Positions 1 to 16,987 of a stretch of DNA of 64,000 nt are shown piece by piece. The DNA comes from a virus (taxonomy: Duplodnaviria > Heunggongvirae > Uroviricota > Caudoviricetes), in the IMG/VR virus record IMGVR_UViG_2851938318_000001. The stretch is one strand, 5' to 3'. The notes beneath the pieces are model-generated. The model was not told the DNA's origin. It did not search any database and saw only the letters and a list, made by a program, of their open reading frames with translations. The number at the start of each line of letters is the position of its first letter. The stretch's first letter is position 1. The translations under genes and the position numbers were made by a program.

Positions 1-1056
1 ATGAGCGAAAACGGCAATAAAAACATAGCGATCGTTGAAGCATTTTCAGAAACAGATAAAAAGACAGGCGAAGTTGTTACGTTGGTTCCTAACACTAATA
101 ACACTGTTCAGCCTGTTGCTTTGATGCGTCTGGGCCTCTTCGTTCCGACGCTGAAATCGACATCCAGAGGAAGAAAGGGGCAAATGGTCTCTATGGATGC
201 CTCTGCTGAACTCAAACAGCTGTCTCTGGCAAAAGCCGAAGGGTACGAAGACATAAGGATCTCTGGCCTTCGGCTTGATATGGATAACGACTTTAAAACG
301 TGGGTGGGAATAATCCACGCGTTTGCCAAACACAAGGTCGTTGGCGATACTGTCACGTTGCCGTTCGTTGAGTTTGTAAGGCTGTGTGGCATTCCGACCG
401 CCAGGTCATCAGCGAAGTTACGCAAACGCCTGGACAGTTCGCTAAGCCGTATTGCCACAAATACCATCTCGTTCCGTAGCAAAGGCTCTGATGAGTTTTA
501 CGTAACGCATCTTGTGCAAACGGCAAAATATAGTGTCAAGCACGATACGGTCGAACTGAAAGCAGATCCCAAGATTTTCGAACTCTACCAGTTCGACAAA
601 AAGGTTCTTCTGCAACTCCGGGCTATAAACGAACTCTCAAGAAAAGAATCCGCTCAGGCGCTTTATACTTTTATTGAAAGTTTGCCGCCTGATCCGGCAC
701 CAATATCACTAGCCCGTTTACGCGCCAGACTTAATCTGACAAGTCGCACTATTACTCAGAATGCGACGGTAAGAAAGGCTATGGAACAGCTGCGAGAGAT
801 AGGATATCTCGATTACACGGAAGTTAAGCGCGGAAACTCGGTCTACTTCGTCATCCACTATAGGCGGCCAAAGTTACGCCAGGCACAAATATCAACAAAA
901 ATCGATAATGATGAGACGGAATATAGCCTCCCAGATGAGAATCAAGATGACATTATCGACGTTGTGCCTGACGAAAAAGAAGGCAAAATGGTCATGTTGA
1001 GTAAAGAAGAACTGGCGCTTCTCGAAGAGTTGCGCAAGGCAAAGACTCGCAAATAG
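1..1056 (+). CDS. repA: Plasmid/phage-plasmid replication initiator RepA (iteron-binding, P1/RepFIB-like)
   Basis: 351-aa ORF with RepA-like conserved blocks ([48 protein letters not shown]); followed directly by iteron-like repeats. Confidence 0.8.
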
Positions 1057-1101
1057 CCCAACCACTGTAGTTAGTAGTAAGGCTCACTATCCACTGTAGT
1101 G
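1057..1101. repeat. Iteron copies (reverse orientation), the second truncated by the IS629 insertion
   Basis: aaccactgtagttagta and atccactgtagtg match the reverse complement of the CTCACyrTAGTGG iteron consensus seen at 3978-4162. Confidence 0.55.
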
Positions 1102-1155
1102 TGAACCGCCCCGGAAATCCTGGAGACTAAACTCCCTGAGAAAGAGGTAAACAGG

Positions 1156-1482
1156 ATGACTAAAAATACTCGTTTTTCCCCCGAAGTCCGTCAGCGGGCG
1201 ATTCGTATGGTTCTGGAAAGTCAGGATGAATATGACTCACAGTGGGCGGCAATTTGTTCCATTGCCCCAAAGATTGGCTGTACGCCGGAGACTCTGCGTG
1301 TCTGGGTTCGCCAGCATGAGCGGGATACCGGGGGCGGTGATGGTGGGCTCACCAGCGCTGAACGTCAGCGTCTGAAAGAGCTGGAACGTGAAAATCGTGA
1401 ACTGCGCCGCAGTAACGATATCCTTCGCCAGGCTTCCGCTTATTTTGCGAAGGCGGAGTTCGACCGCCTCTGGAAAAAATGA
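1156..1482 (+). CDS. IS629 transposase OrfA (HTH)
   Basis: 108-aa [18 protein letters not shown]..., identical in all six copies. Confidence 0.85.
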
Positions 1483-2369
1483 TGCCACTGCTGGATAAGC
1501 TGCGTGAGCAGTACGGGGTCGGACCGGTATGCAGCGAACTGCATATTGCCCCGTCAACGTATTACCATTGTCAGCAACAGCGACATCATCCGGATAAACG
1601 CAGTGCCCGTGCGCAGCACGACGACTGGCTGAAGAGAGAGATACAGCGCGTATACGATGAAAATCATCAGGTGTACGGTGTGCGTAAAGTCTGGCGTCAG
1701 TTGTTACGGGAAGGAATCAGGGTGGCCAGATGTACAGTGGCACGTCTCATGGCGGTTATGGGACTTGCCGGTGTTCTCCGGGGTAAAAAGGTCCGTACGA
1801 CCATCAGCCGGAAAGCCGTTGCCGCAGGCGACCGCGTAAACCGTCAGTTCGTGGCAGAACGACCTGACCAGCTGTGGGTGGCTGATTTTACTTACGTCAG
1901 CACATGGCAGGGCTTCGTCTATGTGGCGTTTATCATTGATGTGTTTGCCGGATACATCGTGGGGTGGCGGGTCTCATCGTCTATGGAAACGACATTCGTG
2001 CTGGATGCGCTGGAGCAGGCGTTGTGGGCCCGTCGTCCGTCTGGCACCATCCATCACAGCGATAAAGGCTCTCAGTATGTGTCACTGGCCTATACGGAGC
2101 GACTAAAAGAAGCCGGATTACTGGCATCAACAGGGAGTACAGGCGACTCGTATGACAACGCGATGGCTGAGAGCATCAATGGTCTTTACAAAGCGGAGGT
2201 AATACACCGTAAGAGCTGGAAAAACCGTGCAGAAGTGGAACTGGCCACACTAACGTGGGTGGACTGGTATAACAATCGACGATTGCTGGGAAGGCTGGGC
2301 CATACTCCTCCGGCAGAAGCAGAAAAAGCTTATTATGCTTCCATCGGAAACGATGATCTGGCAGCCTGA
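1479..2369 (+). CDS. IS629 transposase OrfB (DDE domain; normally expressed as OrfAB by -1 frameshift)
   Basis: 296-aa ORF overlapping orfA end at A-run (ggaaaaaatgatg). Confidence 0.85.
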
Positions 2370-2411
2370 GTTCACAGATAAAACACTCTCCAGGAAACCC
2401 GGGGCGGTTCA

Positions 2412-2661
2412 GTGAGCCTTACTTATATCTGTAATTCGCTATCCACTATAGTGAGTATCGTTATCTGTTGATAACCACTGTAGGCAGTAGAATGCAAATA
2501 CTGAATGAAATGTTAGTGATCACTAACACTGATGAAACAAGGGCTGCGAGGTTAGTGGTCACTGGGTATCTTGGAAAATTTACTGTCTATAGTGGTTGTT
2601 GTCGCCCTCATCTTTGAGCGTATCCACTGTGGCGAGTGGATATCCACTGAAAACAGCAAAG
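2412..2661. repeat. Iteron copies in mixed orientation between the two tandem IS copies
   Basis: atccactatagtgagta, aaccactgtaggcagta, tactgtctatagtggtt, atccactgtggcgagtggat. Confidence 0.5.
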
Positions 2662-2715
2662 TGAACCGCCCCGGAAATCCTGGAGACTAAACTCCCTGAG
2701 AAAGAGGTAAACAGG

Positions 2716-3042
2716 ATGACTAAAAATACTCGTTTTTCCCCCGAAGTCCGTCAGCGGGCGATTCGTATGGTTCTGGAAAGTCAGGATGAATATGACTCAC
2801 AGTGGGCGGCAATTTGTTCCATTGCCCCAAAGATTGGCTGTACGCCGGAGACTCTGCGTGTCTGGGTTCGCCAGCATGAGCGGGATACCGGGGGCGGTGA
2901 TGGTGGGCTCACCAGCGCTGAACGTCAGCGTCTGAAAGAGCTGGAACGTGAAAATCGTGAACTGCGCCGCAGTAACGATATCCTTCGCCAGGCTTCCGCT
3001 TATTTTGCGAAGGCGGAGTTCGACCGCCTCTGGAAAAAATGA
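2716..3042 (+). CDS. IS629 transposase OrfA
   Basis: Identical 108-aa translation. Confidence 0.85.
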
Positions 3043-3929
3043 TGCCACTGCTGGATAAGCTGCGTGAGCAGTACGGGGTCGGACCGGTATGCAGCGAACT
3101 GCATATTGCCCCGTCAACGTATTACCATTGTCAGCAACAGCGACATCATCCGGATAAACGCAGTGCCCGTGCGCAGCACGACGACTGGCTGAAGAGAGAG
3201 ATACAGCGCGTATACGATGAAAATCATCAGGTGTACGGTGTGCGTAAAGTCTGGCGTCAGTTGTTACGGGAAGGAATCAGGGTGGCCAGATGTACAGTGG
3301 CACGTCTCATGGCGGTTATGGGACTTGCCGGTGTTCTCCGGGGTAAAAAGGTCCGTACGACCATCAGCCGGAAAGCCGTTGCCGCAGGCGACCGCGTAAA
3401 CCGTCAGTTCGTGGCAGAACGACCTGACCAGCTGTGGGTGGCTGATTTTACTTACGTCAGCACATGGCAGGGCTTCGTCTATGTGGCGTTTATCATTGAT
3501 GTGTTTGCCGGATACATCGTGGGGTGGCGGGTCTCATCGTCTATGGAAACGACATTCGTGCTGGATGCGCTGGAGCAGGCGTTGTGGGCCCGTCGTCCGT
3601 CTGGCACCATCCATCACAGCGATAAAGGCTCTCAGTATGTGTCACTGGCCTATACGGAGCGACTAAAAGAAGCCGGATTACTGGCATCAACAGGGAGTAC
3701 AGGCGACTCGTATGACAACGCGATGGCTGAGAGCATCAATGGTCTTTACAAAGCGGAGGTAATACACCGTAAGAGCTGGAAAAACCGTGCAGAAGTGGAA
3801 CTGGCCACACTAACGTGGGTGGACTGGTATAACAATCGACGATTGCTGGGAAGGCTGGGCCATACTCCTCCGGCAGAAGCAGAAAAAGCTTATTATGCTT
3901 CCATCGGAAACGATGATCTGGCAGCCTGA
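3039..3929 (+). CDS. IS629 transposase OrfB
   Basis: Identical 296-aa translation. Confidence 0.85.
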
Positions 3930-8001: not shown

Positions 8002-8888
8002 TGCCACTGCTGGATAAGCTGCGTGAGCAGTACGGGGTCGGACCGGTATGCAGCGAACTGCATATTGCCCCGTCAACGTATTACCATTGTCAGCAACAGC
8101 GACATCATCCGGATAAACGCAGTGCCCGTGCGCAGCACGACGACTGGCTGAAGAGAGAGATACAGCGCGTATACGATGAAAATCATCAGGTGTACGGTGT
8201 GCGTAAAGTCTGGCGTCAGTTGTTACGGGAAGGAATCAGGGTGGCCAGATGTACAGTGGCACGTCTCATGGCGGTTATGGGACTTGCCGGTGTTCTCCGG
8301 GGTAAAAAGGTCCGTACGACCATCAGCCGGAAAGCCGTTGCCGCAGGCGACCGCGTAAACCGTCAGTTCGTGGCAGAACGACCTGACCAGCTGTGGGTGG
8401 CTGATTTTACTTACGTCAGCACATGGCAGGGCTTCGTCTATGTGGCGTTTATCATTGATGTGTTTGCCGGATACATCGTGGGGTGGCGGGTCTCATCGTC
8501 TATGGAAACGACATTCGTGCTGGATGCGCTGGAGCAGGCGTTGTGGGCCCGTCGTCCGTCTGGCACCATCCATCACAGCGATAAAGGCTCTCAGTATGTG
8601 TCACTGGCCTATACGGAGCGACTAAAAGAAGCCGGATTACTGGCATCAACAGGGAGTACAGGCGACTCGTATGACAACGCGATGGCTGAGAGCATCAATG
8701 GTCTTTACAAAGCGGAGGTAATACACCGTAAGAGCTGGAAAAACCGTGCAGAAGTGGAACTGGCCACACTAACGTGGGTGGACTGGTATAACAATCGACG
8801 ATTGCTGGGAAGGCTGGGCCATACTCCTCCGGCAGAAGCAGAAAAAGCTTATTATGCTTCCATCGGAAACGATGATCTGGCAGCCTGA
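7998..8888 (+). CDS. IS629 transposase OrfB
   Basis: Identical 296-aa translation. Confidence 0.85.
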
Positions 8889-8930
8889 GTTCACAGATAA
8901 AACACTCTCCAGGAAACCCGGGGCGGTTCA

Positions 8931-11900
8931 ACTGATGGTTCGAACTGACTTCTCACTTGGGGAGTCGGCTCTAAAAGCAGAAAACGCGGTGAAGATTGCC
9001 AGAGAAGCTGGCTACACCGCTGTAATTTCAGCAGATAGCATGAATATTGCGAGCGTTATTCCACTACAACGTGCCGCTGGTGACGACATGGCGGTTATTT
9101 GTGGTGTGAAACTAAACATTGTTGATGATCCCACATACGAGCACCGGGCTAAACTTGCTAAAGAATCTATGAGATGTATGGAATCATTAGAGCGGGGACG
9201 TAACTACTCGTTTACCGCTCTAATTAAAAATGAGCAAGGATATCGCGACATCTGCGAACTAATGACGGCGGCCAACACACGAGAACAGTTCTACTTTGTA
9301 CCGCGTCTCTCGCTCGAACAGTTGGTTTCTACATATGCCAAAGGCAACATCATCCTGCTTACTTCCGACATCGGTAGCGTGTTCCAACGCAACGATTTTG
9401 CAAAAATCATAAGCACACTGATTACAGCGGGTGGAAAAGACAACTTCTATAGTGTGGTTTATCCGCACCCTACCCCATTCTACGACCAGATTAACGTCCG
9501 GGCGATGAAAGTCGCCAGCGCATTGAAAATAGAGCCAGTGGCGTTCTATCCCGCTTATTACGAATCGATCGACGATGCAGACATTAAAGACATTGCGCAC
9601 ATGGTTACGAACAACATCAAAATCGACCAGCCGCATCGTCTGCGTATCCCCCACCAGCGAGATAACGCCGTCAATGGTCGCCGCCATCTCCTTGAGGCGC
9701 TTAAAGCCTTCTCCGTTCGCATGGATGTGCCGGTAACAGCTGCAATGGCCTCAACAACGCAGGATACCATTATCGATGCCTGCACATGGCGCTGGCATGA
9801 ATTGCCGCCAGCACTGCCAAAGATGGCAGACGACGAGCCTGCAACGCTTATGAAACTGGCTGTTGCAGGGCTGCGTAAACGTCTTACCACAAAAGAGTTT
9901 GGCTACACACCACCTGCTTCTGAGAACAGGGTTTATGTTGAGCGGCTAAAGTACGAAATGGACACGCTGACTCGCCTGGGATTTTGTGGTTACTTCCTGA
10001 TGGTACGCGATCTGATGAATCATAGTCGTGAAACTGGCATTCCCGTTGGGCCTGGTCGTGGTTCCTCTGCCGGTTCTCTGGTGGCGTGGTGCATAGGCAT
10101 AACCAACGTCGACCCAATCCGTCACGGTCTTCTGTTTGAGCGTTTCATCAACCCTGAGCGTCTCGACTTGCCGGATGCGGACTTGGACTTCAGCCAGGCA
10201 CGTCGCCATGAGGTGATCGAGTATCTGAATGAACGCTACGGCGAAGATTACGTTGCGGGTATTCCGAACTTCACCTACCTGGGCGCAGCCTCTGCACTAC
10301 GTGATACCGCTCGTATTTATGGTGTGGAGTCCGCAGATATGGCGGTATCAAAAGAACTGAAGAACGTCGAGGATGATAGCCTTCCATTGGAAGAGCTGCG
10401 CGAACAACTGGCAAGTCTCGACAAATACGCAACAAAATATCCTGATGCATTCAATGCAGCCTGCAAGTTACAAAGCCTTATGCGTGGCTTTGGTAGACAT
10501 GCGGCAGGGATGATCGTAGCAGGTGTTCCTCTGACAGAACGTACACCGGTTGAGCGCCGTGGTGACGCGCGTTGTATCGCATTTGACAAGCGTTACTGCG
10601 AGGCTATGGGCCTAATTAAGCTGGACGTGCTTGGCCTGGCAACTCTCGATTTGCTCGATAGTGCAAAACGCTACATAAAAGAGAACACAGGTGAAGATAT
10701 CAATCTTGATGCCATTTCTCTTGAAGATCGCAAGGTGCTGGATGGTTTTGCTGCTGGGTACACTCAAGGTGTTTTCCAGCTTGAATCAGGCCCAATGCGC
10801 AAGCTGCTTAAAGATTTAGGTGGTGGAATTGAGCCAATGAGCTTTAAAACGGTCGTCGCTACAACTGCGCTCTTCCGGCCGGGGCCAATTCAATCAGGCA
10901 TGTTGGATGACTATGTTTCTGTCGCCAAAGGCTTTATGACGCCGGAATCATTACACCCCGTTCTTGATGAACTTACCGCGGAAACAAATGGCGTGATTCT
11001 CTATCAGGAACAGACGATGAACGCGACTCGATTGCTTGCCGGCTTCACAATGGCTGAAGCTGACGCTGTGCGTTCCGCAATCGGTAAGAAGAACATGGAA
11101 AAAATGAAGAGCATGGGCGAGAAGTTTATCGTTCAGGCTCAAGCTGGCTGGATAGACGTTGAGCTGGAAGATGGCACTACACAGCGCATTCACCGTGCGG
11201 AACATTTTAAATGCGAAGACGGAACTCTGAAAACTGTCGAAGAGGCACTTGAGCACGGCGCAAAACTACCTATAAACGCAGTACGCGTTACAGCGTCACA
11301 TCCAGGGCTATCAGAGATGAAAGCGAAGGAGATCTGGACCGCATTTGAGAAAAACGGAGCCTATCAGTTCAATAAATCACACTCCGTTGCTTATTCTTTA
11401 ATCAGTTATCAGTCTATGTGGCTAAAGACGCACTACCCTGCTGAGTTCTTCGCAGCTGCGCTCACCATTCTGGGCGAGGATAAGCATCAGGGGCTGGTGA
11501 AGGATGCGCTGACCTATGGCATTCGCGTATTGCCACCAGACGTTAATGTGTCATCTAACCGAATTGAGATCCGCACACTCGAAGACGGCAGTCAGGCACT
11601 GTATGCGCCATTCTCTGCTGTGAAAGGCTGTTCTGAAAATGGTTGTCAGGCAATTATGCGTGCGCGTGAGAAAGTTGGTGGCAAATTCGAGTCAGTGGCA
11701 CAATTCGATGAAGCGGTCGAGAAGCGTGCATGTAACAGTCGTGTACGCGAGTCGCTTCATAAAGTAGGGGCTTTTGCGTCAATTGAGCCAGGCAGTCTGC
11801 CAGCAACTGATCCTGAACGACTGCGCGACCAGGCTGAGCTGATGGGCAATCTCATCATTGACGCTGTTAAAGCATCACGTCCGTTCGAAATGAATCCTAA

Positions 11901-12441
11901 GCGTTCTGCCGAAATCAACGTACTCATGACACGTATGGCGGCTGAAATGGGCTTGGGTGAGGAGTTGATACGCCCGACTATTGGTATTAAACCCAAAATC
12001 ATGATCATTCTGGACAATGCGAACGGCAATGACGCTCGTACCGGCTACTTCATGGAGAACGGATACGACGACTTTAAGGCAAAACTACTGACAGTTGGAG
12101 ATCTGCGCATGGGCGATCTTTATGTCACGGGTGTTTGTAAGAAGGTTAAGGACAAAGAGAAAGACTATACCAAAGACGAGATAGGCCAGTTCACAGACTT
12201 TATGCGGGAAGAAATTAATCTTGTACGACCAACCTACATTTTGACGTGTGGTAGTCGTTCAACCGCACTATTTAACAATAAGAGTAAACCATCAGATCTG
12301 ATTGGTCGTAAGGAGTACTTCCCAGAGCTTGATGCAACCGTCTTCTACGGATTTAACCCGAATATCCTGTACTTCCGACCGGAAGAAGGAGAGCGACTGG
12401 AGGCCATTCTGGCTGATATCGCGGAGACAATAAATAAGTAA
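8931..12441 (+). CDS. dnaE: DNA polymerase III alpha subunit (DnaE-like), separated from its native start codon by IS629
   Basis: PHP-like N-terminus and Pol III alpha signature GPGRGSSAGSLVAWCIGITNVDPIRHGLLFERFINPERLDLPDADLDF; ORF-track start at 8854 is IS-derived, first in-frame ATG after the IS at 8935. Confidence 0.8.
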
Positions 12442-12446
12442 TAAAG

Positions 12447-12470
12447 AAAACCCGCCTGTTGGCGGGTTTA
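12447..12470. terminator. Bidirectional rho-independent terminator
   Basis: cccgcc-tgtt-ggcggg stem with A-run before and T-run after. Confidence 0.5.
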
Positions 12471-12744
12471 TAAAGAATTATGGCGCTTGTTGAGGAAGTC
12501 ACTCCTCTTACGCACTTTGTTTTGCCATGCCGGCAGTTAGCTTCTGCCTTTGACTATTCATGCGGCAACCCCGCATTTCGCCACAATGGGCAATTCACTT
12601 TTATGGAATAAACTGGCCGTTGTGTCGATTTAATTAGCATGGCCTTACCATGCTAATTTATTCAACTTGTACAATCCTACAAATCTATCCACTCAGGCTT
12701 ACACCGTCTTCGTTATTGTAGAAATGAGGATCATCAGCGTTGAA

Positions 12745-12960
12745 TCAGCTTAGAGCAACGACATTTGCTGCTGCTGGGCCTTTAGCCCCATTCTCGATAG
12801 AGAATTCGACCTGCTGGCCTTCTTCCAAAGTGCGGAAATTATTACTCTGAATTGCCGAAAAATGTACAAAAACATCTTTACTGCCATCAGCAGGAGAAAT
12901 AAAGCCAAAGCCTTTATCAGAGTTAAACCATTTTACTAAACCAGTCATTTTATTAGACAT
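12745..12960 (-). CDS. Cold-shock protein, CspA family
   Basis: [23 protein letters not shown]...VFVHFSAIQ matches the CSD RNP motifs; ORF-track ORF extends upstream, true start taken at MSNKMTG. Confidence 0.8.
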
Positions 12961-13289
12961 AGATATTACCTTCTTAATTTTGTGAGCCACATAGTGCGGC
13001 GAGAATTTGATCTGTATAGATTGGGACTTACTTAGGCACTTAAGGAGGAGACTCACGAAGAAGGGAAATCAGAAGATAACACTGAACTGAGACTGCTTTA
13101 CTAAAACTGCTTACATAAGGTCTGTCTTGCAAACCAACGATGCTATTAACGCATACCCCTTCTTTTCATGCAACCTTTATTTTTCAAAGATAACTAATTT
13201 TTGTCACCATTGGTTTAGTAAACGTTAACGAACCAGACGATGCCAGACACCTTTACAGAGAACAGATGCCCGCCAATTGGCGGGCATCA

Positions 13290-13853
13290 TTATGCACATT
13301 TCGCAATATCTTTGCGGCGTTTAATCAGTTTCTCCGCAATTTGCTCTATTTCGTTGAAATCTTTCGAGACGCTGTTTCGAAGCGCCAGATTCCATTTACT
13401 CAAAGTTCGGGCATTTTGGACAATTTGATCGCCCTCTTTAAGTCGTCCGTTATTCATGAGCCATTCAGCCACATCAGCCCAATCCCAGAGAGGAGACTGG
13501 CCTTTTATGCGTTGTACAGGGCAAGGGAAGTCGCCGCTTCCGCGCTTACCGTCTTTGAGCAACGCCACTGCCTGGCGAGACAGGTCTGTCAGTTCCGCGA
13601 TATCGCTTAAGCCCACAAGAGCCGAGTCGACGGATTCAACAATTGCACCGATACCGGCTGATTCAATATTGTCGACCGCAGATGCGATAGCTGCATCAAG
13701 TGATTGTGCTTCGCGGTCAAATTCTACATAGACGGAGTTTCCATATGCGCAAATTAGCGCATCGTCACAGCCGTTTTGGTACAGCGCGTCTTCCAGTCCT
13801 TCCGTCTCATACGATACGCCTGAGAGCGTCAGAGTGAAGTTATAAAGCGCCAT
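13290..13853 (-). CDS. Putative DNA-binding protein with C-terminal HTH (possible HicB-like antitoxin)
   Basis: HTH-like segment LSDIAELTDLSRQAVALLKDG; second gene of an operon behind a palindromic operator/promoter. Confidence 0.4.
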   Translation of the reverse strand: MALYNFTLTLSGVSYETEGLEDALYQNGCDDALICAYGNSVYVEFDREAQSLDAAIASAVDNIESAGIGAIVESVDSALVGLSDIAELTDLSRQAVALLKDGKRGSGDFPCPVQRIKGQSPLWDWADVAEWLMNNGRLKEGDQIVQNARTLSKWNLALRNSVSKDFNEIEQIAEKLIKRRKDIAKCA

Positions 13854-13913
13854 AGTTTTCCTTTGAAGATAGTTGGACAGTTTCTGCAAAAGGCGGCTAA
13901 TGCCGCCTTGAAA

Positions 13914-14138
13914 TCATTTACAACGATCAACCATTCGTTTGATCTGTTTGGCATGGTTTTCGGGATTACCCGGAGTCGACCATACGCTCATTTGGTGAGT
14001 TTTGTGTTCACCTTCTGGATTACCGCATCGCAGTCTGCAAAAACAATGTGCAGCACCACCAGCTGCTACCCAGATCCAGCCTTTACTTAATGCATAGTCA
14101 ATGGCTGCTTGAATATGCTTATTCGGATGTTGCTTCAT
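13914..14138 (-). CDS. Small protein (74 aa), possible toxin partner
   Basis: First gene behind a sigma70-like promoter overlapped by a palindrome; GGAGG RBS; size and gene order fit HicA-first operons but sequence is not diagnostic. Confidence 0.35.
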   Translation of the reverse strand: MKQHPNKHIQAAIDYALSKGWIWVAAGGAAHCFCRLRCGNPEGEHKTHQMSVWSTPGNPENHAKQIKRMVDRCK

Positions 14139-14149
14139 TCGCCTCCGAT

Positions 14150-14190
14150 AATAGTATTCTATTCACAGTGTTGACATCTGTCAACGGCGA
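14150..14190 (-). promoter_or_regulatory. Sigma70-like promoter with overlapping palindromic operator
   Basis: Minus-strand TTGACA (14179-14184), 17-bp spacer, TAGAAT (14156-14161); palindrome gttgaca-tc-tgtcaac at 14170-14185. Confidence 0.45.
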
Positions 14191-14350
14191 CTGAATTTCA
14201 TCCGTTCATGCCACACCCCCATCCATCTCATGTATGTGACCTAAAGATGGTCAGCACAGCTTACCAAAATAAGACAACTAATTATCTTCGGTGATCTCAA
14301 TATTTTCCCCTGAACAAAGTTGACATGACGCCATAAACCCGTTCTCTGTT

Positions 14351-14359
14351 TGATATAAT
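14351..14359 (+). promoter_or_regulatory. Extended -10 promoter element (TGaTATAAT) upstream of the UvsY-like gene
   Basis: tgatataat about 34 bp upstream of the GTG start at 14393; no good -35. Confidence 0.3.
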
Positions 14360-14392
14360 TGATACAGATTTTATAAGTAGGAACCTATTAGA

Positions 14393-14824
14393 GTGAACAC
14401 TGATATTTTTTCTAAAATCATGGCCGATCTGGAGTTCGACCGCGACAACCTTGAGGAAGTATGGCGTAAACAGCCACGGCTTTTAATGGAGTATGGGTCA
14501 AAACTAGCGCAGGCAGATCGAGATGTCGCAGAGGCAAAACTTAACCTTGAAGCTGTTGAAGCAAAGCTATACGACACAGAGCGTAAGAACTTGAGTATGA
14601 ACGGCATTAAGTTCAACGAGTCTGTACTGGACGCTAAGGTTAAAACAAACCCACAGTATCTGTCTAAACGGCAGAAGTTGGATGAAGCACGGCACATCGC
14701 AGACATATACAAACATGCTGTCGCCGCCTTTTCGCATCGCCGAGACATGATCGTTCAGGCGTCAAAGATGGCCATCGTTGAATTAGAGCGATTAGGCTCT
14801 GAACGCTTTATTACTCCCCGTTGA
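14393..14824 (+). CDS. Putative recombination mediator (UvsY-like), hypothetical
   Basis: 143-aa helical protein starting at GTG; sits directly upstream of the gp32-like SSB and RecA-like genes as in T4-type recombination modules; weak similarity only. Confidence 0.4.
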   Translation: MNTDIFSKIMADLEFDRDNLEEVWRKQPRLLMEYGSKLAQADRDVAEAKLNLEAVEAKLYDTERKNLSMNGIKFNESVLDAKVKTNPQYLSKRQKLDEARHIADIYKHAVAAFSHRRDMIVQASKMAIVELERLGSERFITPR

Positions 14825-14941
14825 TTTTTGATAGATAATAAGTAAGTACTGATCTATCATTTAACAGCTCGAAAGAGCCACGAATGAACGAAAGCCCAAC
14901 GCGCATAGCGCCATCGGCCAAATCACAACAAGGAGAAACAC

Positions 14942-15982
14942 ATGTCTAAGACATTACTTGATTTGCTTAACAAAACTCGTGAAGACATTGCCGCCAAACG
15001 TGGCAACAACGTTGATCTGACTCGCTTAAAAGACGGCGTCAACTATATCCGCATCTTCCCGAATAAAGACGACCCAAACGGTAAGTTCTTCCAGACTTTC
15101 GGTATGCACTACGTTAAGTATCAGAACGAGGAAGGTAAAGAAGCAACCAACGCTTATATTTGTGAGCAACATACTCACGGTCGCGCTTGTCAGCTATGCG
15201 AAATGGTTATGGAAGGTCGCGCTCGTCACAAGGGTAACAAAGCAATGGAAGAACGCATCGGTCAAATGCGTGCCACTCCTCGCTACCTGGTCAACGGCAT
15301 TCTTTCTGCTCGTGAGGATTTCGCAGATGCTGAGAAATGCCAGTTAATCGAGCTGCCGTCTACTGTATTCGATGATATCTGCAAAGCAATCACCGAAGAC
15401 ATCGCTGATGATATCGGCAATCCACTGAGCAAAGAGGAAGGCTACGCATTCCTGATTAAACGTACTGGCTCTGGTCGCGATACCAAATATGACGTCTCGC
15501 CTAAGCGTAAAGTCTACAAAGGCGATATCGAAGATAAATTCTGGAACACCCAGCATGATCTGATCGCATACGCAAATCAGGCTGATGAAACTCGTCTTCT
15601 GTCGACAGTTCGCACTATGGGTCGTCTGATTGGCATCGCTGCACCAACTGCCGCAGCATCTGCACCAGCATCTGCACCAGCAATTTCCTCAACCGCGAAA
15701 ACATCGGCTGCGGCACTACCTGGATTTGGCTCTGTCACTGGTCATACAGAAGGAGCGACGGCTGTAGCAACCGCGCACACACCGGCTTCTGAACCAACCA
15801 GTCTGGTTGATGAAGAAATCCTCCGTGCCGTTGAAACTGAATTTAAACCAGAAGCAAGTTCCGCTGCCGTTGCCGTATCAGTCAAAGAGTCTGAAGCAGT
15901 CGCAGCGACATCTGTAGCAGCCGCATCTGCGACGGAAGATGAAGGTCTGGATGACCTACTGAGAGAGCTGGACTCTCTGTAA
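14942..15982 (+). CDS. Single-stranded DNA-binding protein, T4 gp32-like
   Basis: IRIFPNKDDPNGKFFQTFGMHY core, Cys/His cluster C-x3-H-x-H...C-x2-C, acidic C-terminal tail DEGLDDLLRELDSL; AAGGAG RBS. Confidence 0.6.
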   Translation: MSKTLLDLLNKTREDIAAKRGNNVDLTRLKDGVNYIRIFPNKDDPNGKFFQTFGMHYVKYQNEEGKEATNAYICEQHTHGRACQLCEMVMEGRARHKGNKAMEERIGQMRATPRYLVNGILSAREDFADAEKCQLIELPSTVFDDICKAITEDIADDIGNPLSKEEGYAFLIKRTGSGRDTKYDVSPKRKVYKGDIEDKFWNTQHDLIAYANQADETRLLSTVRTMGRLIGIAAPTAAASAPASAPAISSTAKTSAAALPGFGSVTGHTEGATAVATAHTPASEPTSLVDEEILRAVETEFKPEASSAAVAVSVKESEAVAATSVAAASATEDEGLDDLLRELDSL

Positions 15983-15998
15983 TCCCATTACGTGACCA

Positions 15999-16027
15999 GT
16001 AAGGCGTCTACGGACGCCTTACTTTTT
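15999..16027 (+). terminator. Rho-independent terminator after the SSB gene
   Basis: taaggcgtc-tacg-gacgcctta stem followed by cttttt. Confidence 0.6.
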
Positions 16028-16042
16028 GGAAGGAATGTACCG

Positions 16043-16987
16043 GTGAATTATCTCTTCGTAGATGGCAATAGCCTGGGTTATTACCACCAACAATCTGACA
16101 AATTGCACAACGGCGAAATGGAAGTACAGGCTGCTTTCGGCTTTGTTAAGAACGTCCGTCGTTATGCCTCCATCCTCCATGCCCGACCTATGATTCTTTG
16201 GGATGGATTTAGTGACAAGCGTCGCGACTTTTACCCGGACTACAAAGCAAATCGCGACGACGATCCTGATATGAAAAAGATGAAGGAAGGCTTTGCTATC
16301 CAGAAGCCATACATCCTCAAAATGATGACCGCGCTTGGAGTTACCCAACTCATTGCAAAAGATGCAGAAGCGGATGATCTGGCCGGGCTGCTGGTATCCC
16401 GCATGGCACCGCAGCCAACCGTTGAACACATCTATCTGTTAACAGGCGATAGCGACTGGCTTCAGTTAGTTCGTGAAAACGTAAGCTGGGTAAGCCTGCG
16501 TGAAGACGCCAAAAACAAGCAGGTTAATTTTGAGCAATTTGCGGAGCTGACAGGATTCGCCACGCCTCGCGCATTTTTGGAAGCAAAAGCATTACAAGGC
16601 GATAACTCGGACAACATTAGCGGTGTTGGTGGCATTGGTGCTGGCGGTGCGAAAGAGCTGCTGCATGAATGGGGAAGTGTCGCAACGATGGTACGCGGCA
16701 TCAACGACGGCTCAATCGTGGTTAATAAAGGGCGTCATAAGACCGCCTTCAACAAACTAGCGAAGAATGCCTTCAACGAGAAAACAGGCTGTCGAATGCT
16801 CGAAGCGTTCAAGAGAAACATCACGCTAATGAACCTGATTGAGACGAAGTTTCCGCCTACCGAAATCGAAACAATCAAAGGCAATCGTGACGTGAAAGCA
16901 TTCGAGCAACTGTGCTACGAGCTGAATTTCCGTTCGTTCCTTGAAGACCTTGAAGTGTTTGTTCTTCCATTCGAAAGGTATTGCTAA
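16043..16987 (+). CDS. 5'-3' exonuclease / flap endonuclease (PIN/FEN family)
   Basis: LFVDGNSLGYYH, GDSDWLQLV and GDNSDNISGVGGIG motifs; start placed at GTG 16043 after the terminator, with GGAAGG RBS. Confidence 0.7.
   Translation: MNYLFVDGNSLGYYHQQSDKLHNGEMEVQAAFGFVKNVRRYASILHARPMILWDGFSDKRRDFYPDYKANRDDDPDMKKMKEGFAIQKPYILKMMTALGVTQLIAKDAEADDLAGLLVSRMAPQPTVEHIYLLTGDSDWLQLVRENVSWVSLREDAKNKQVNFEQFAELTGFATPRAFLEAKALQGDNSDNISGVGGIGAGGAKELLHEWGSVATMVRGINDGSIVVNKGRHKTAFNKLAKNAFNEKTGCRMLEAFKRNITLMNLIETKFPPTEIETIKGNRDVKAFEQLCYELNFRSFLEDLEVFVLPFERYC

Follow-up and report, generated by a model that had tools for sequence, protein, structure and literature searches.

A promoter-overlapping operator and a candidate toxin-antitoxin-like gene pair in SSU5-like phage-plasmids

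The type II toxin-antitoxin (TA) operons of the HicAB class, represented by systems from Escherichia coli (6hpb), Yersinia pestis (HicA3B3, 4p78), Burkholderia pseudomallei (6g26), and Streptococcus pneumoniae (5yrz), begin with a small toxin gene that is followed by a larger gene for a DNA-binding partner, and their operator overlaps the promoter in an arrangement that implies autorepression. The same layout is seen in the two-gene operon described here, which lies on the minus strand of a 64,000-nucleotide stretch of Caudoviricetes DNA (IMG/VR record IMGVR_UViG_2851938318_000001; hereafter “the window”) and encodes a small protein, A, and a larger protein, B. Some type II TA systems are modular, in that antitoxins swap their toxin-binding and DNA-binding parts in a “mix-and-match” fashion. 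Other points of comparison are the AlpA/Xis/MerR-superfamily regulators, such as the GIsul2 excisionase (8c3t), and the candidate defense system PDC-M06.

Indeed, PDC-M06 is the same cassette. Its two genes are adjacent in the modeled order, six PDC-M06A models match A (best 1.2e-19), and PDC-M06B matches B (1.3e-32). PDC-M06 (CAS_00046, FAM_01986>>FAM_01364; 497 RefSeq instances) was proposed as a “guilt-by-embedding” candidate from BREX, DISARM, and type I restriction-modification (RM) systems (Payne et al., bioRxiv 10.1101/2024.01.29.577857), whereas the window cassette resides on a phage-plasmid, outside any BREX, DISARM, or RM system. No paper that we found mentions PDC-M06 by name.

The window region and Escherichia phage Cyrano (OV696614) share 99.7% identity. 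Cyrano is pLF82, the SSU5-like phage-plasmid of E. coli LF82. The Cyrano record labels A as CYRAN_51, “HicA toxin protein,” and B as CYRAN_50, “putative antitoxin HicB,” and RefSeq names the same proteins “hypothetical protein” and “helix-turn-helix/AlpA family transcriptional regulator.” Both genes are listed as lysogeny-expressed morons of Cyrano, with RNA-seq of LF82 lysogens placing A at 30x and B at 14x over the local transcription background (PMC9928086). Thus, the cassette is already catalogued, both in the Cyrano record and in PADLOC, yet it is uncharacterized. New here are a conserved operator that co-varies with a helix of B, the domain architecture of B, a putative zinc site in A, and the finding that the gene pair fails tests of HicAB membership. 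We lean toward the view that the operon belongs to a new family of self-repressed type II TA-like or abortive-infection cassettes and is carried by Cyrano/pLF82 as a moron that is expressed in lysogeny.

A conserved operator overlaps the promoter of the operon

A preliminary description of the locus, made from its sequence alone, had pointed to a minus-strand promoter, TTGACA and TAGAAT, overlapped by a palindrome, and every one of these elements is in place (Table 1). The promoter matches the consensus at 11 of 12 positions and is the best promoter-like site within positions 12400 to 15000. The palindrome spans the −35 box and the first ten bases of the spacer. Judged on the window alone, the statistics of these features are unimpressive, in that 30 of 100 shuffles contain at least one match to the palindrome pattern with no more than two mismatches, and the region holds as many promoter-like sites as shuffling would lead one to expect.

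We used B as a probe to retrieve 80 loci (here given L numbers), each from a different species, and aligned their upstream regions on the start codon of A. A core sequence, GTTGAC-N4-GTCAAC, is found at −41 to −52 bp from the ATG of A in 62 of the 64 loci that have an intact A gene. The centers of its half-sites are 10 bp, or one helical turn, apart. The half-sites carry 2 bits of information, the flanking positions carry about 0.1 to 0.4 bit, and the 4-bp center is represented by 36 different sequences among the loci. A hexamer of the form xAnnnT is located 16 to 18 bp from TTGAC in 61 of the 62 loci and exactly 17 bp from it in 54, and positions A2 and T6 of this −10 element reach 1.4 bits. 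GTTGAC-N4-GTCAAC has no further copy across the 546 kb of sequence from these loci, and the 64-kb window contains just one, which suggests that B regulates its own operon only. The operator is kept despite deletion of A in three loci (L015, L019, and L042). In Enterobacter pulveris (L044), a tandem operator pair, GTTGACATCCGTCAAC - AAAATC - GTTGACAGGCGTCAAC, occupies the region about 70 to 35 bp upstream of A. On the strength of these comparative sequence data, the palindrome is a firm operator.

The right half-site is conserved even though sigma-70 does not need it, which indicates that the site is recognized by a dimeric DNA-binding protein. We take B to be this protein because it is the only one encoded here that has a DNA-binding fold and because one of its helices co-varies with the operator. 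The co-varying residues align with the second helix of a winged helix, which is the putative recognition helix. Dozens of loci, distant ones included, combine the helix sequence [ST]-R-Q-A with the operator GTTGAC/GTCAAC. Proteins with [TS]-R-A-A are encoded beside a symmetrically changed operator, GTTTAC-N4-GTAAAC, in L153 and L134 and beside a degenerate version of it in L133, and proteins with K-K are found with GTAGAC-type half-sites (L005 and L139/L140). In L158, the helix sequence T-N-E-S (N-E-S) accompanies CTGTTGGTAT-A-ATACCAACAG, with half-sites TGTTGGTAT/ATACCAACA, centered on the −10 box. The correlation is imperfect, as L141, L086, and L148 combine R-A-A with GTTGAC-like sites. The co-variation nevertheless supports the assignment of B as the putative operator-binding repressor. 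Read at the sequence level, the operon would be autoregulated through an operator in its own promoter, as is characteristic of type II TA systems, and the layout that had been proposed for it, in which an operator overlies the promoter and the small gene leads, is borne out.

Predicted architectures of A and B

An AlphaFold2 (AF2) model of A, with a predicted local distance difference test score (pLDDT) of 89.8, has an alpha-beta-beta-beta-alpha topology plus a short extra helix. The modeled core topology resembles that of HicA, and a histidine (H31) at the start of strand 2 would lie near the site of the HicA catalytic histidine. The family is large, with 716 clusters at 50% identity reaching E<=1e-3, and is covered by no Pfam or NCBIfam model. 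Conservation was counted over 105 of its members, in 100 of which H31 is conserved. Three columns resemble metal ligands, namely C38 (104/105), position 48 (Cys in 72 and His in 25), and C73 (103/105), and another His is often present two residues past C73. In the window protein, where position 48 is His, a putative zinc site would be formed by C38, H45/H48, and C73. Its motifs include a conserved N-terminal H-P-N-K and S-V-W-S-T-P. A is about 15 residues longer than HicA proteins and differs from them in its short extra helix, and the five solved HicA sequences that we compared have none of HPNK, SVWSTP, and the Cys/His cluster with the His that often follows C73.

Sequence searches provide a marginal link between A and HicA. 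A has no match to HicA_toxin (PF07927) at E<=1 and none in NCBIfam, and PF07927 is matched by none of 44 close and 105 diverse relatives of A at E<=10, whereas the 120 listed homologues of B. pseudomallei HicA, which served as a positive control, all carry it. Searches of Pfam, NCBIfam, and PDB sequence profiles with A and B returned nothing meaningful, and a Foldseek search of the PDB with the A model returned nothing significant and no HicA (best E 1.2). With hhalign, the A family aligns to the five solved HicA sequences with a probability of 32% over 23 to 24 columns that run from helix 1 to strand 2. This value is 21% when the 120 canonical HicAs are added, all of which are at least 75% identical to the query and therefore contribute little diversity, and the global alignment mode collapses. 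The local alignment pairs GW...H31 of A with GW...GSH of HicA, wherein H31 falls one residue past His24 of B. pseudomallei HicA, the residue changed to Ala in PDB entries 4c26 and 6g26. The identical one-residue offset is seen for the His of E. coli HicA (GSNH). Taken together, A is modeled with a HicA-like fold and has a probable zinc site as judged from conserved residues, and homology to HicA is possible.

Two database matches to A were set aside. A sub-threshold match to RuBisCO_small (PF00101) in 33 of the 44 close homologues (best E 1.2e-4) was treated as spurious, and the name “ribulose bisphosphate carboxylase small subunit” given to one NCBI homologue (P0039, Shewanella sp. 1180_01) is almost certainly a mis-annotation. 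The A genes of an Enterobacter/Salmonella phage-plasmid lineage (L002 and L105–L107) have no ATG and start with TTG or CTG (GGAGATAAATTGTATCTGAAGACG), and databases hold both 74- and 76-amino acid versions of the protein. A weak start of this type may limit translation of A in that lineage.

For B, the start codon was assigned to the ATG at 13853 because homologues begin with MALYNF and because AAGGA is located ahead of this ATG. The TTG start at 13889 called by the open reading frame (ORF) tool, which would yield 199 amino acids, was rejected. The AF2 model of B (pLDDT 89.2) has three parts. Its ferredoxin-like N-terminal domain resembles the ACT, AsnC-RAM, and HMA ligand-binding/oligomerization domains. 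Its central winged helix is of the small type that defines the AlpA/excisionase family and resembles AlpA, Xis, and TerS proteins, including the GIsul2 AlpA-family excisionase and mycobacteriophage Pukovnik Xis. The C-terminal part is predicted to be a helical hairpin. The families phrog_2620, phrog_66, and phrog_2790 carry the label “excisionase and transcriptional regulator.” A recurring weak match of B to CagE_TrbE_VirB is under the cut-off and was treated as spurious.

These predicted parts differ from those of HicB. The N-terminal domain of HicB proteins has a partial RNase-H-like fold, and the C-terminal domain is of the ribbon-helix-helix or Xre type. Neither is found in B, and hhalign gives a probability of 0.4% for B against HicB N-terminal domains. 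Unlike the AlpA/Xis-type excisionases, B has additional N- and C-terminal domains, it presumably recognizes a symmetric palindrome that overlies its own promoter, not att-arm sites, and it has no consistent link to an integrase.

The preliminary description thus had the order of the two genes right and misplaced the helix-turn-helix (HTH) of B, which is central rather than C-terminal. A HicA-like character for A, also suggested there, finds little backing in the Foldseek, Pfam, and hhalign results, and a HicB-like character for B did not survive comparison.

One locus (L147; IMGVR_UViG_3300031991_000103, positions 3269 to 3800) carries what may be a split or domain-swapped version of B. The partner of A there is the N-terminal domain alone, about 85 amino acids in length, and the next ORF encodes an Xre-like HTH protein. 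This single example is reminiscent of mix-and-match TA systems and suggests that the N-terminal domain of B is the A-specific part and that the DNA-binding part is exchangeable.

Linkage, spread, and surroundings of the gene pair

A and B are almost always found together. About 72 of the 80 loci selected with B have A or a remnant of it immediately upstream on the same strand (64 intact and about 8 remnants), and B is immediately downstream of A in all 62 loci (41 distinct sequences) of a viral set selected with A. The pairing holds down to about 43% identity in A (L086 and L158), with the partners of distant A proteins sampled in five single loci. Adjacent, co-oriented small genes whose pairing is conserved across contexts are a general feature of type II TA systems, and the contexts of this pair are diverse. 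The cassette occupies the same slot in SSU5-like phage-plasmids, an island flanked by an integrase in Pseudoalteromonas, a satellite-like island adjoining a RelE-family/HTH gene pair in Prodigiosinella, and plain chromosomal backbone with no integrase nearby in Providencia and Mannheimia. In the L158 contig (ENA ERZ795066, positions 400 to 3340), the distant A-B pair is accompanied by other TA-type genes. The same contig carries a canonical HicA_toxin (PF07927) gene, directly preceded by a 74-amino acid gene, as well as DUF433 genes, one of which adjoins a PIN-like gene, and the operator there is CTGTTGGTATAATACCAACAG, centered on the −10 box.

The operon is carried by 109 of 5,426 complete E. 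coli genomes (about 2%), where it is always located on plasmids of 106 to 117 kb. In PLSDB, B homologues are present on 346 plasmids, mostly non-mobilizable and about 100 kb in size, from Escherichia, Enterobacter, Yersinia, and Citrobacter, with many from Enterobacter and Citrobacter. The Yersinia plasmids account for 63 records of pMT1 size, several of which are from Y. pestis. The cassette is also present in many enterobacterial chromosomes. Base composition at the operon gives no indication of a foreign insert.

The two genes decay unequally. In the B-selected set, about 12 of 78 loci have a disrupted A gene beside an intact B and, usually, an intact operator. The A gene is deleted in L015, L019, L042, L043, and L046, frameshifted in L023, L035, L073, and L076, and interrupted by a stop codon or truncated in L032, L034, and L065. 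In the A-selected set, B is damaged beside an intact A in one of about 40 distinct viral sequences (L106), and a stop codon lies within A in L131. Loss of A with retention of B is the pattern expected of a toxin and its antitoxin, and the asymmetry is suggestive of a TA-like pair.

Table 1. Features of the operon and its surroundings in the window. Positions of protein domains are residues of B.
Feature	Position	Strand	Remarks
Gene A, 74 amino acids, candidate toxin/effector	13914–14138	minus	Matches PADLOC PDC-M06A and phrog_5923
Gene B, 187 amino acids, candidate antitoxin/repressor	13290–13853	minus	Matches PADLOC PDC-M06B and phrog_2620
−35 hexamer TTGACA	14179–14184	minus	Inside the left operator half-site; TTGAC kept in all operator-bearing loci
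−10 hexamer TAGAAT	14156–14161	minus	17-bp spacer from −35
Operator palindrome GTTGACA-GA-TGTCAAC	14170–14185		Perfect 7+7 with 2-bp center
Ribosome-binding site (RBS) of A, GGAGG	14142–14146	minus	3 nt from ATG; read from sequence
RBS of B, AAGGA	13859–13863	minus	5 nt from ATG; read from sequence
B N-terminal domain	residues 1–75		Ferredoxin-like, beta-alpha-beta-beta-alpha-beta (AF2 model)
B DNA-binding domain	residues about 78–135		Central small AlpA/excisionase-type winged helix (AF2 model)
B C-terminus	residues 143–186		Helical hairpin, two long helices (AF2 model)
Intergenic GC hairpin AAGGCGGC-ATTA-GCCGCCTT then TT	13890–13909	minus	Within the 60-nt A-B spacer
Terminator-like hairpin	13265–13288	minus	Directly after the B stop; 10-bp stem, 8 GC pairs, T-rich tail; 12-nt perfect arms
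cspA-family cold-shock gene	12720–13138	minus	Immediately downstream of the operon; coding sequence about 12745–12960
DnaE-like DNA polymerase III alpha	8854–12441	plus	One continuous 1195-amino acid ORF
T4-like gene set	14393–16987	plus	Divergent from the A promoter
RecA	beyond about 17200		Position for the Cyrano gene

The sequence CGGAGG followed by 3 to 4 nt and ATG recurs before A in many homologous loci. Strong GC hairpins between A and B, which differ in sequence, occur in clades whose spacers are 50 to 80 nt long (L007–L069) and are missing where A and B are less than about 35 nt apart. The hairpin was therefore rejected as a universal feature of the operon. An Rfam search of the operon found no known RNA family. 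Only four T's follow the intergenic stem of the window, and this structure may be a leaky terminator or attenuator or, equally, an element for mRNA stability or processing. The leaky-terminator reading fits the roughly 2:1 ratio of A to B transcripts (PMC9928086). More speculatively, the short distance between GGAGG and the ATG of A would be expected to limit translation of A, and the hairpin may adjust the ratio of A to B transcripts.

The cspA-family gene retains a full-length cspA thermoregulator 5′ UTR (Rfam RF01766, 185.7 bits, E 8e-51). The slot that it occupies is variable, since related SSU5-like phage-plasmids (L002) hold a 214-amino acid gene there. The DnaE-like gene is split into parts encoding 787 and 389 amino acids by an HNH/NUMOD4 homing-endonuclease gene in a relative from Enterobacter hormaechei (L002, positions 10053 to 14305). 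The RecA of these phage-plasmids is about 780 amino acids long (Cyrano, L001, 10544 to 12883; L002, 2548 to 4890), and the Intein_splicing and LAGLIDADG Pfam matches in the L002 protein indicate that it contains an intein. The T4-like set comprises a UvsY-like mediator, a gp32-like single-stranded DNA-binding protein, and a 5′-3′ exonuclease, as called from the Cyrano annotation and from Pfam matches in L002.

A toxin-antitoxin-like role and its alternatives

The reading that we favor can be set out as a mechanism. As the sequence and the published RNA-seq data show, a strong sigma-70 promoter transcribes A and then B as a unit. B would dimerize through its C-terminal helical hairpin and place two winged helices on the half-sites of GTTGAC-N4-GTCAAC, and the bound protein would occlude the −35 box and shut the operon, as the conservation of the operator and its co-variation with the helix suggest. 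A would be a harmful effector, probably stabilized by zinc, with a topology of the double-stranded RNA-binding domain/HicA type and an invariant His where strand 2 begins, and most plausibly it would bind or cleave RNA. The ferredoxin-like N-terminal domain of B, which we take to be the neutralizing part because it is always retained beside A, would bind and neutralize A. If B were lost or titrated, on loss of the phage-plasmid or infection by another phage, free A would arrest or kill the cell, and the outcome would be plasmid addiction, abortive-infection defense, or both.

Several points weigh against this proposal. Toxicity, neutralization, operator binding, and anti-phage activity are inferred properties, and so is the identity of the operator-binding protein. 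The link between A and HicA is weak by Foldseek, by hhalign, and by the Pfam and NCBIfam searches. The 145 PDCs are stated by their authors to be candidates only (bioRxiv 10.1101/2024.01.29.577857), DefensePredictor excluded PDCs as unvalidated, and PDC-M06 is absent from the candidates tested in PMC12881386. The excess of A over B transcripts is odd for a toxic A unless translation compensates for it. The unequal decay of the two genes was measured in differently selected sets and with small numbers (about 12/78 versus 1/40). Compared with L105, the metagenomic viral contig L106 (IMGVR_UViG_3300013741_000046) has an 80-bp deletion at positions 3270 to 3275 that removes the RBS of B, its start codon, and its first 15 or so codons and leaves A intact. 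This contig is either a counter-example to the notion that B is indispensable beside A or an assembly artefact or dead element. Lastly, a divergent orphan A (L160), with altered conserved residues, has no B in the 300 downstream bases available.

A more specific version of the proposal, which we advance tentatively and hold to fall somewhat short of probable, is that A and B represent an unnamed and widespread TA or abortive-infection family. This family would combine a zinc-stapled HicA-like nuclease with a new antitoxin, built from a ferredoxin-like domain, an AlpA-type winged helix, and a coiled-coil, and with a dedicated GTTGAC-N4-GTCAAC operator, and it would stabilize or defend SSU5-type phage-plasmids, including the pMT1-size plasmids of Y. 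pestis.

The most serious alternative, which we nonetheless regard as unlikely, is that A and B form a non-toxic regulatory pair. B would then be an autoregulated AlpA-like factor that senses a ligand or partner through its ferredoxin-like (ACT/RAM-like) domain, and A would be a harmless small zinc protein that acts as a co-regulator, anti-repressor, or chaperone. The resemblance of the N-terminal domain to ACT, AsnC-RAM, and HMA domains is as this explanation would have it, as is the RefSeq name of B, which mentions transcriptional regulation only. The persistence of B and its operator in loci that have no A indicates that B functions without A, and both the greater abundance of A transcripts and the contig in which A has no functional B start are easier to accommodate if A is harmless. 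The lack of additional operator copies, in the window as in the 546 kb of flanking sequence, speaks against a regulator with other targets. Moreover, the pair is self-contained, moves with mobile elements, adjoins other TA-type genes, and has turned up inside BREX, DISARM, or type I RM systems, and the loss of A with retention of B is what would be expected if A is costly.

It is improbable that the operon is a bona fide HicAB system, with an mRNA interferase, HicA, and its HicB antitoxin as named in the Cyrano record. The annotation itself (PMC9928086), the small-gene-first order, and the alignment of GW...H31 with GW...GSH speak for this assignment. They are outweighed by the lack of PF07927 in all 105 relatives of A, as against its presence in every listed canonical HicA match, by the negative Foldseek search and low hhalign probabilities, by the Cys/His cluster and HPNK motif that the solved HicAs do not have, and by the lack of a ribbon-helix-helix or Xre-type HTH at the C-terminus of B. 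The operon that had been described as a TA operon of the HicAB kind is therefore TA-like and apparently autoregulated, and of the HicAB kind only loosely.

Still less credence can be given to the possibility that B acts as an excisionase or a recombination directionality factor, with the palindrome as a recombination or att-related site. The three phrog labels and the similarity of the winged helix to those of the GIsul2 excisionase and Pukovnik Xis would be in keeping with such a role, and some loci are near integrases. Cyrano, however, is extrachromosomal, and its locus is situated among replication and recombination genes. No integrase adjoins the Cyrano, Providencia, or Mannheimia loci, and many chromosomal loci have none nearby. 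The site is always at a fixed distance over the −35 box of the operon itself, and B is always paired with A. Finally, a chance palindrome arising from a strong −35 box beside two unrelated ORFs has a negligible probability, for although the shuffled windows would allow it, the comparative data refute it, with the GTCAAC half, which sigma-70 does not need, kept in 62 of 64 loci while N4 and the flanks vary freely, with symmetric variants such as GTTTAC-N4-GTAAAC, and with near-universal linkage of A and B.

The 16-bp operator and its helix-tracking variants constitute a protein-DNA recognition code that is immediately testable. The comparison also corrects public annotation, since the HicA/HicB label of Cyrano is unsupported for B and weakly supported for A, and current pipelines label A a “hypothetical protein.” Should A prove to be a toxin, the type II repertoire would gain both a toxin variant and an antitoxin architecture that are new, and the cassette, as an addiction or abortive-infection module, would help to explain the stable persistence of SSU5-like phage-plasmids.

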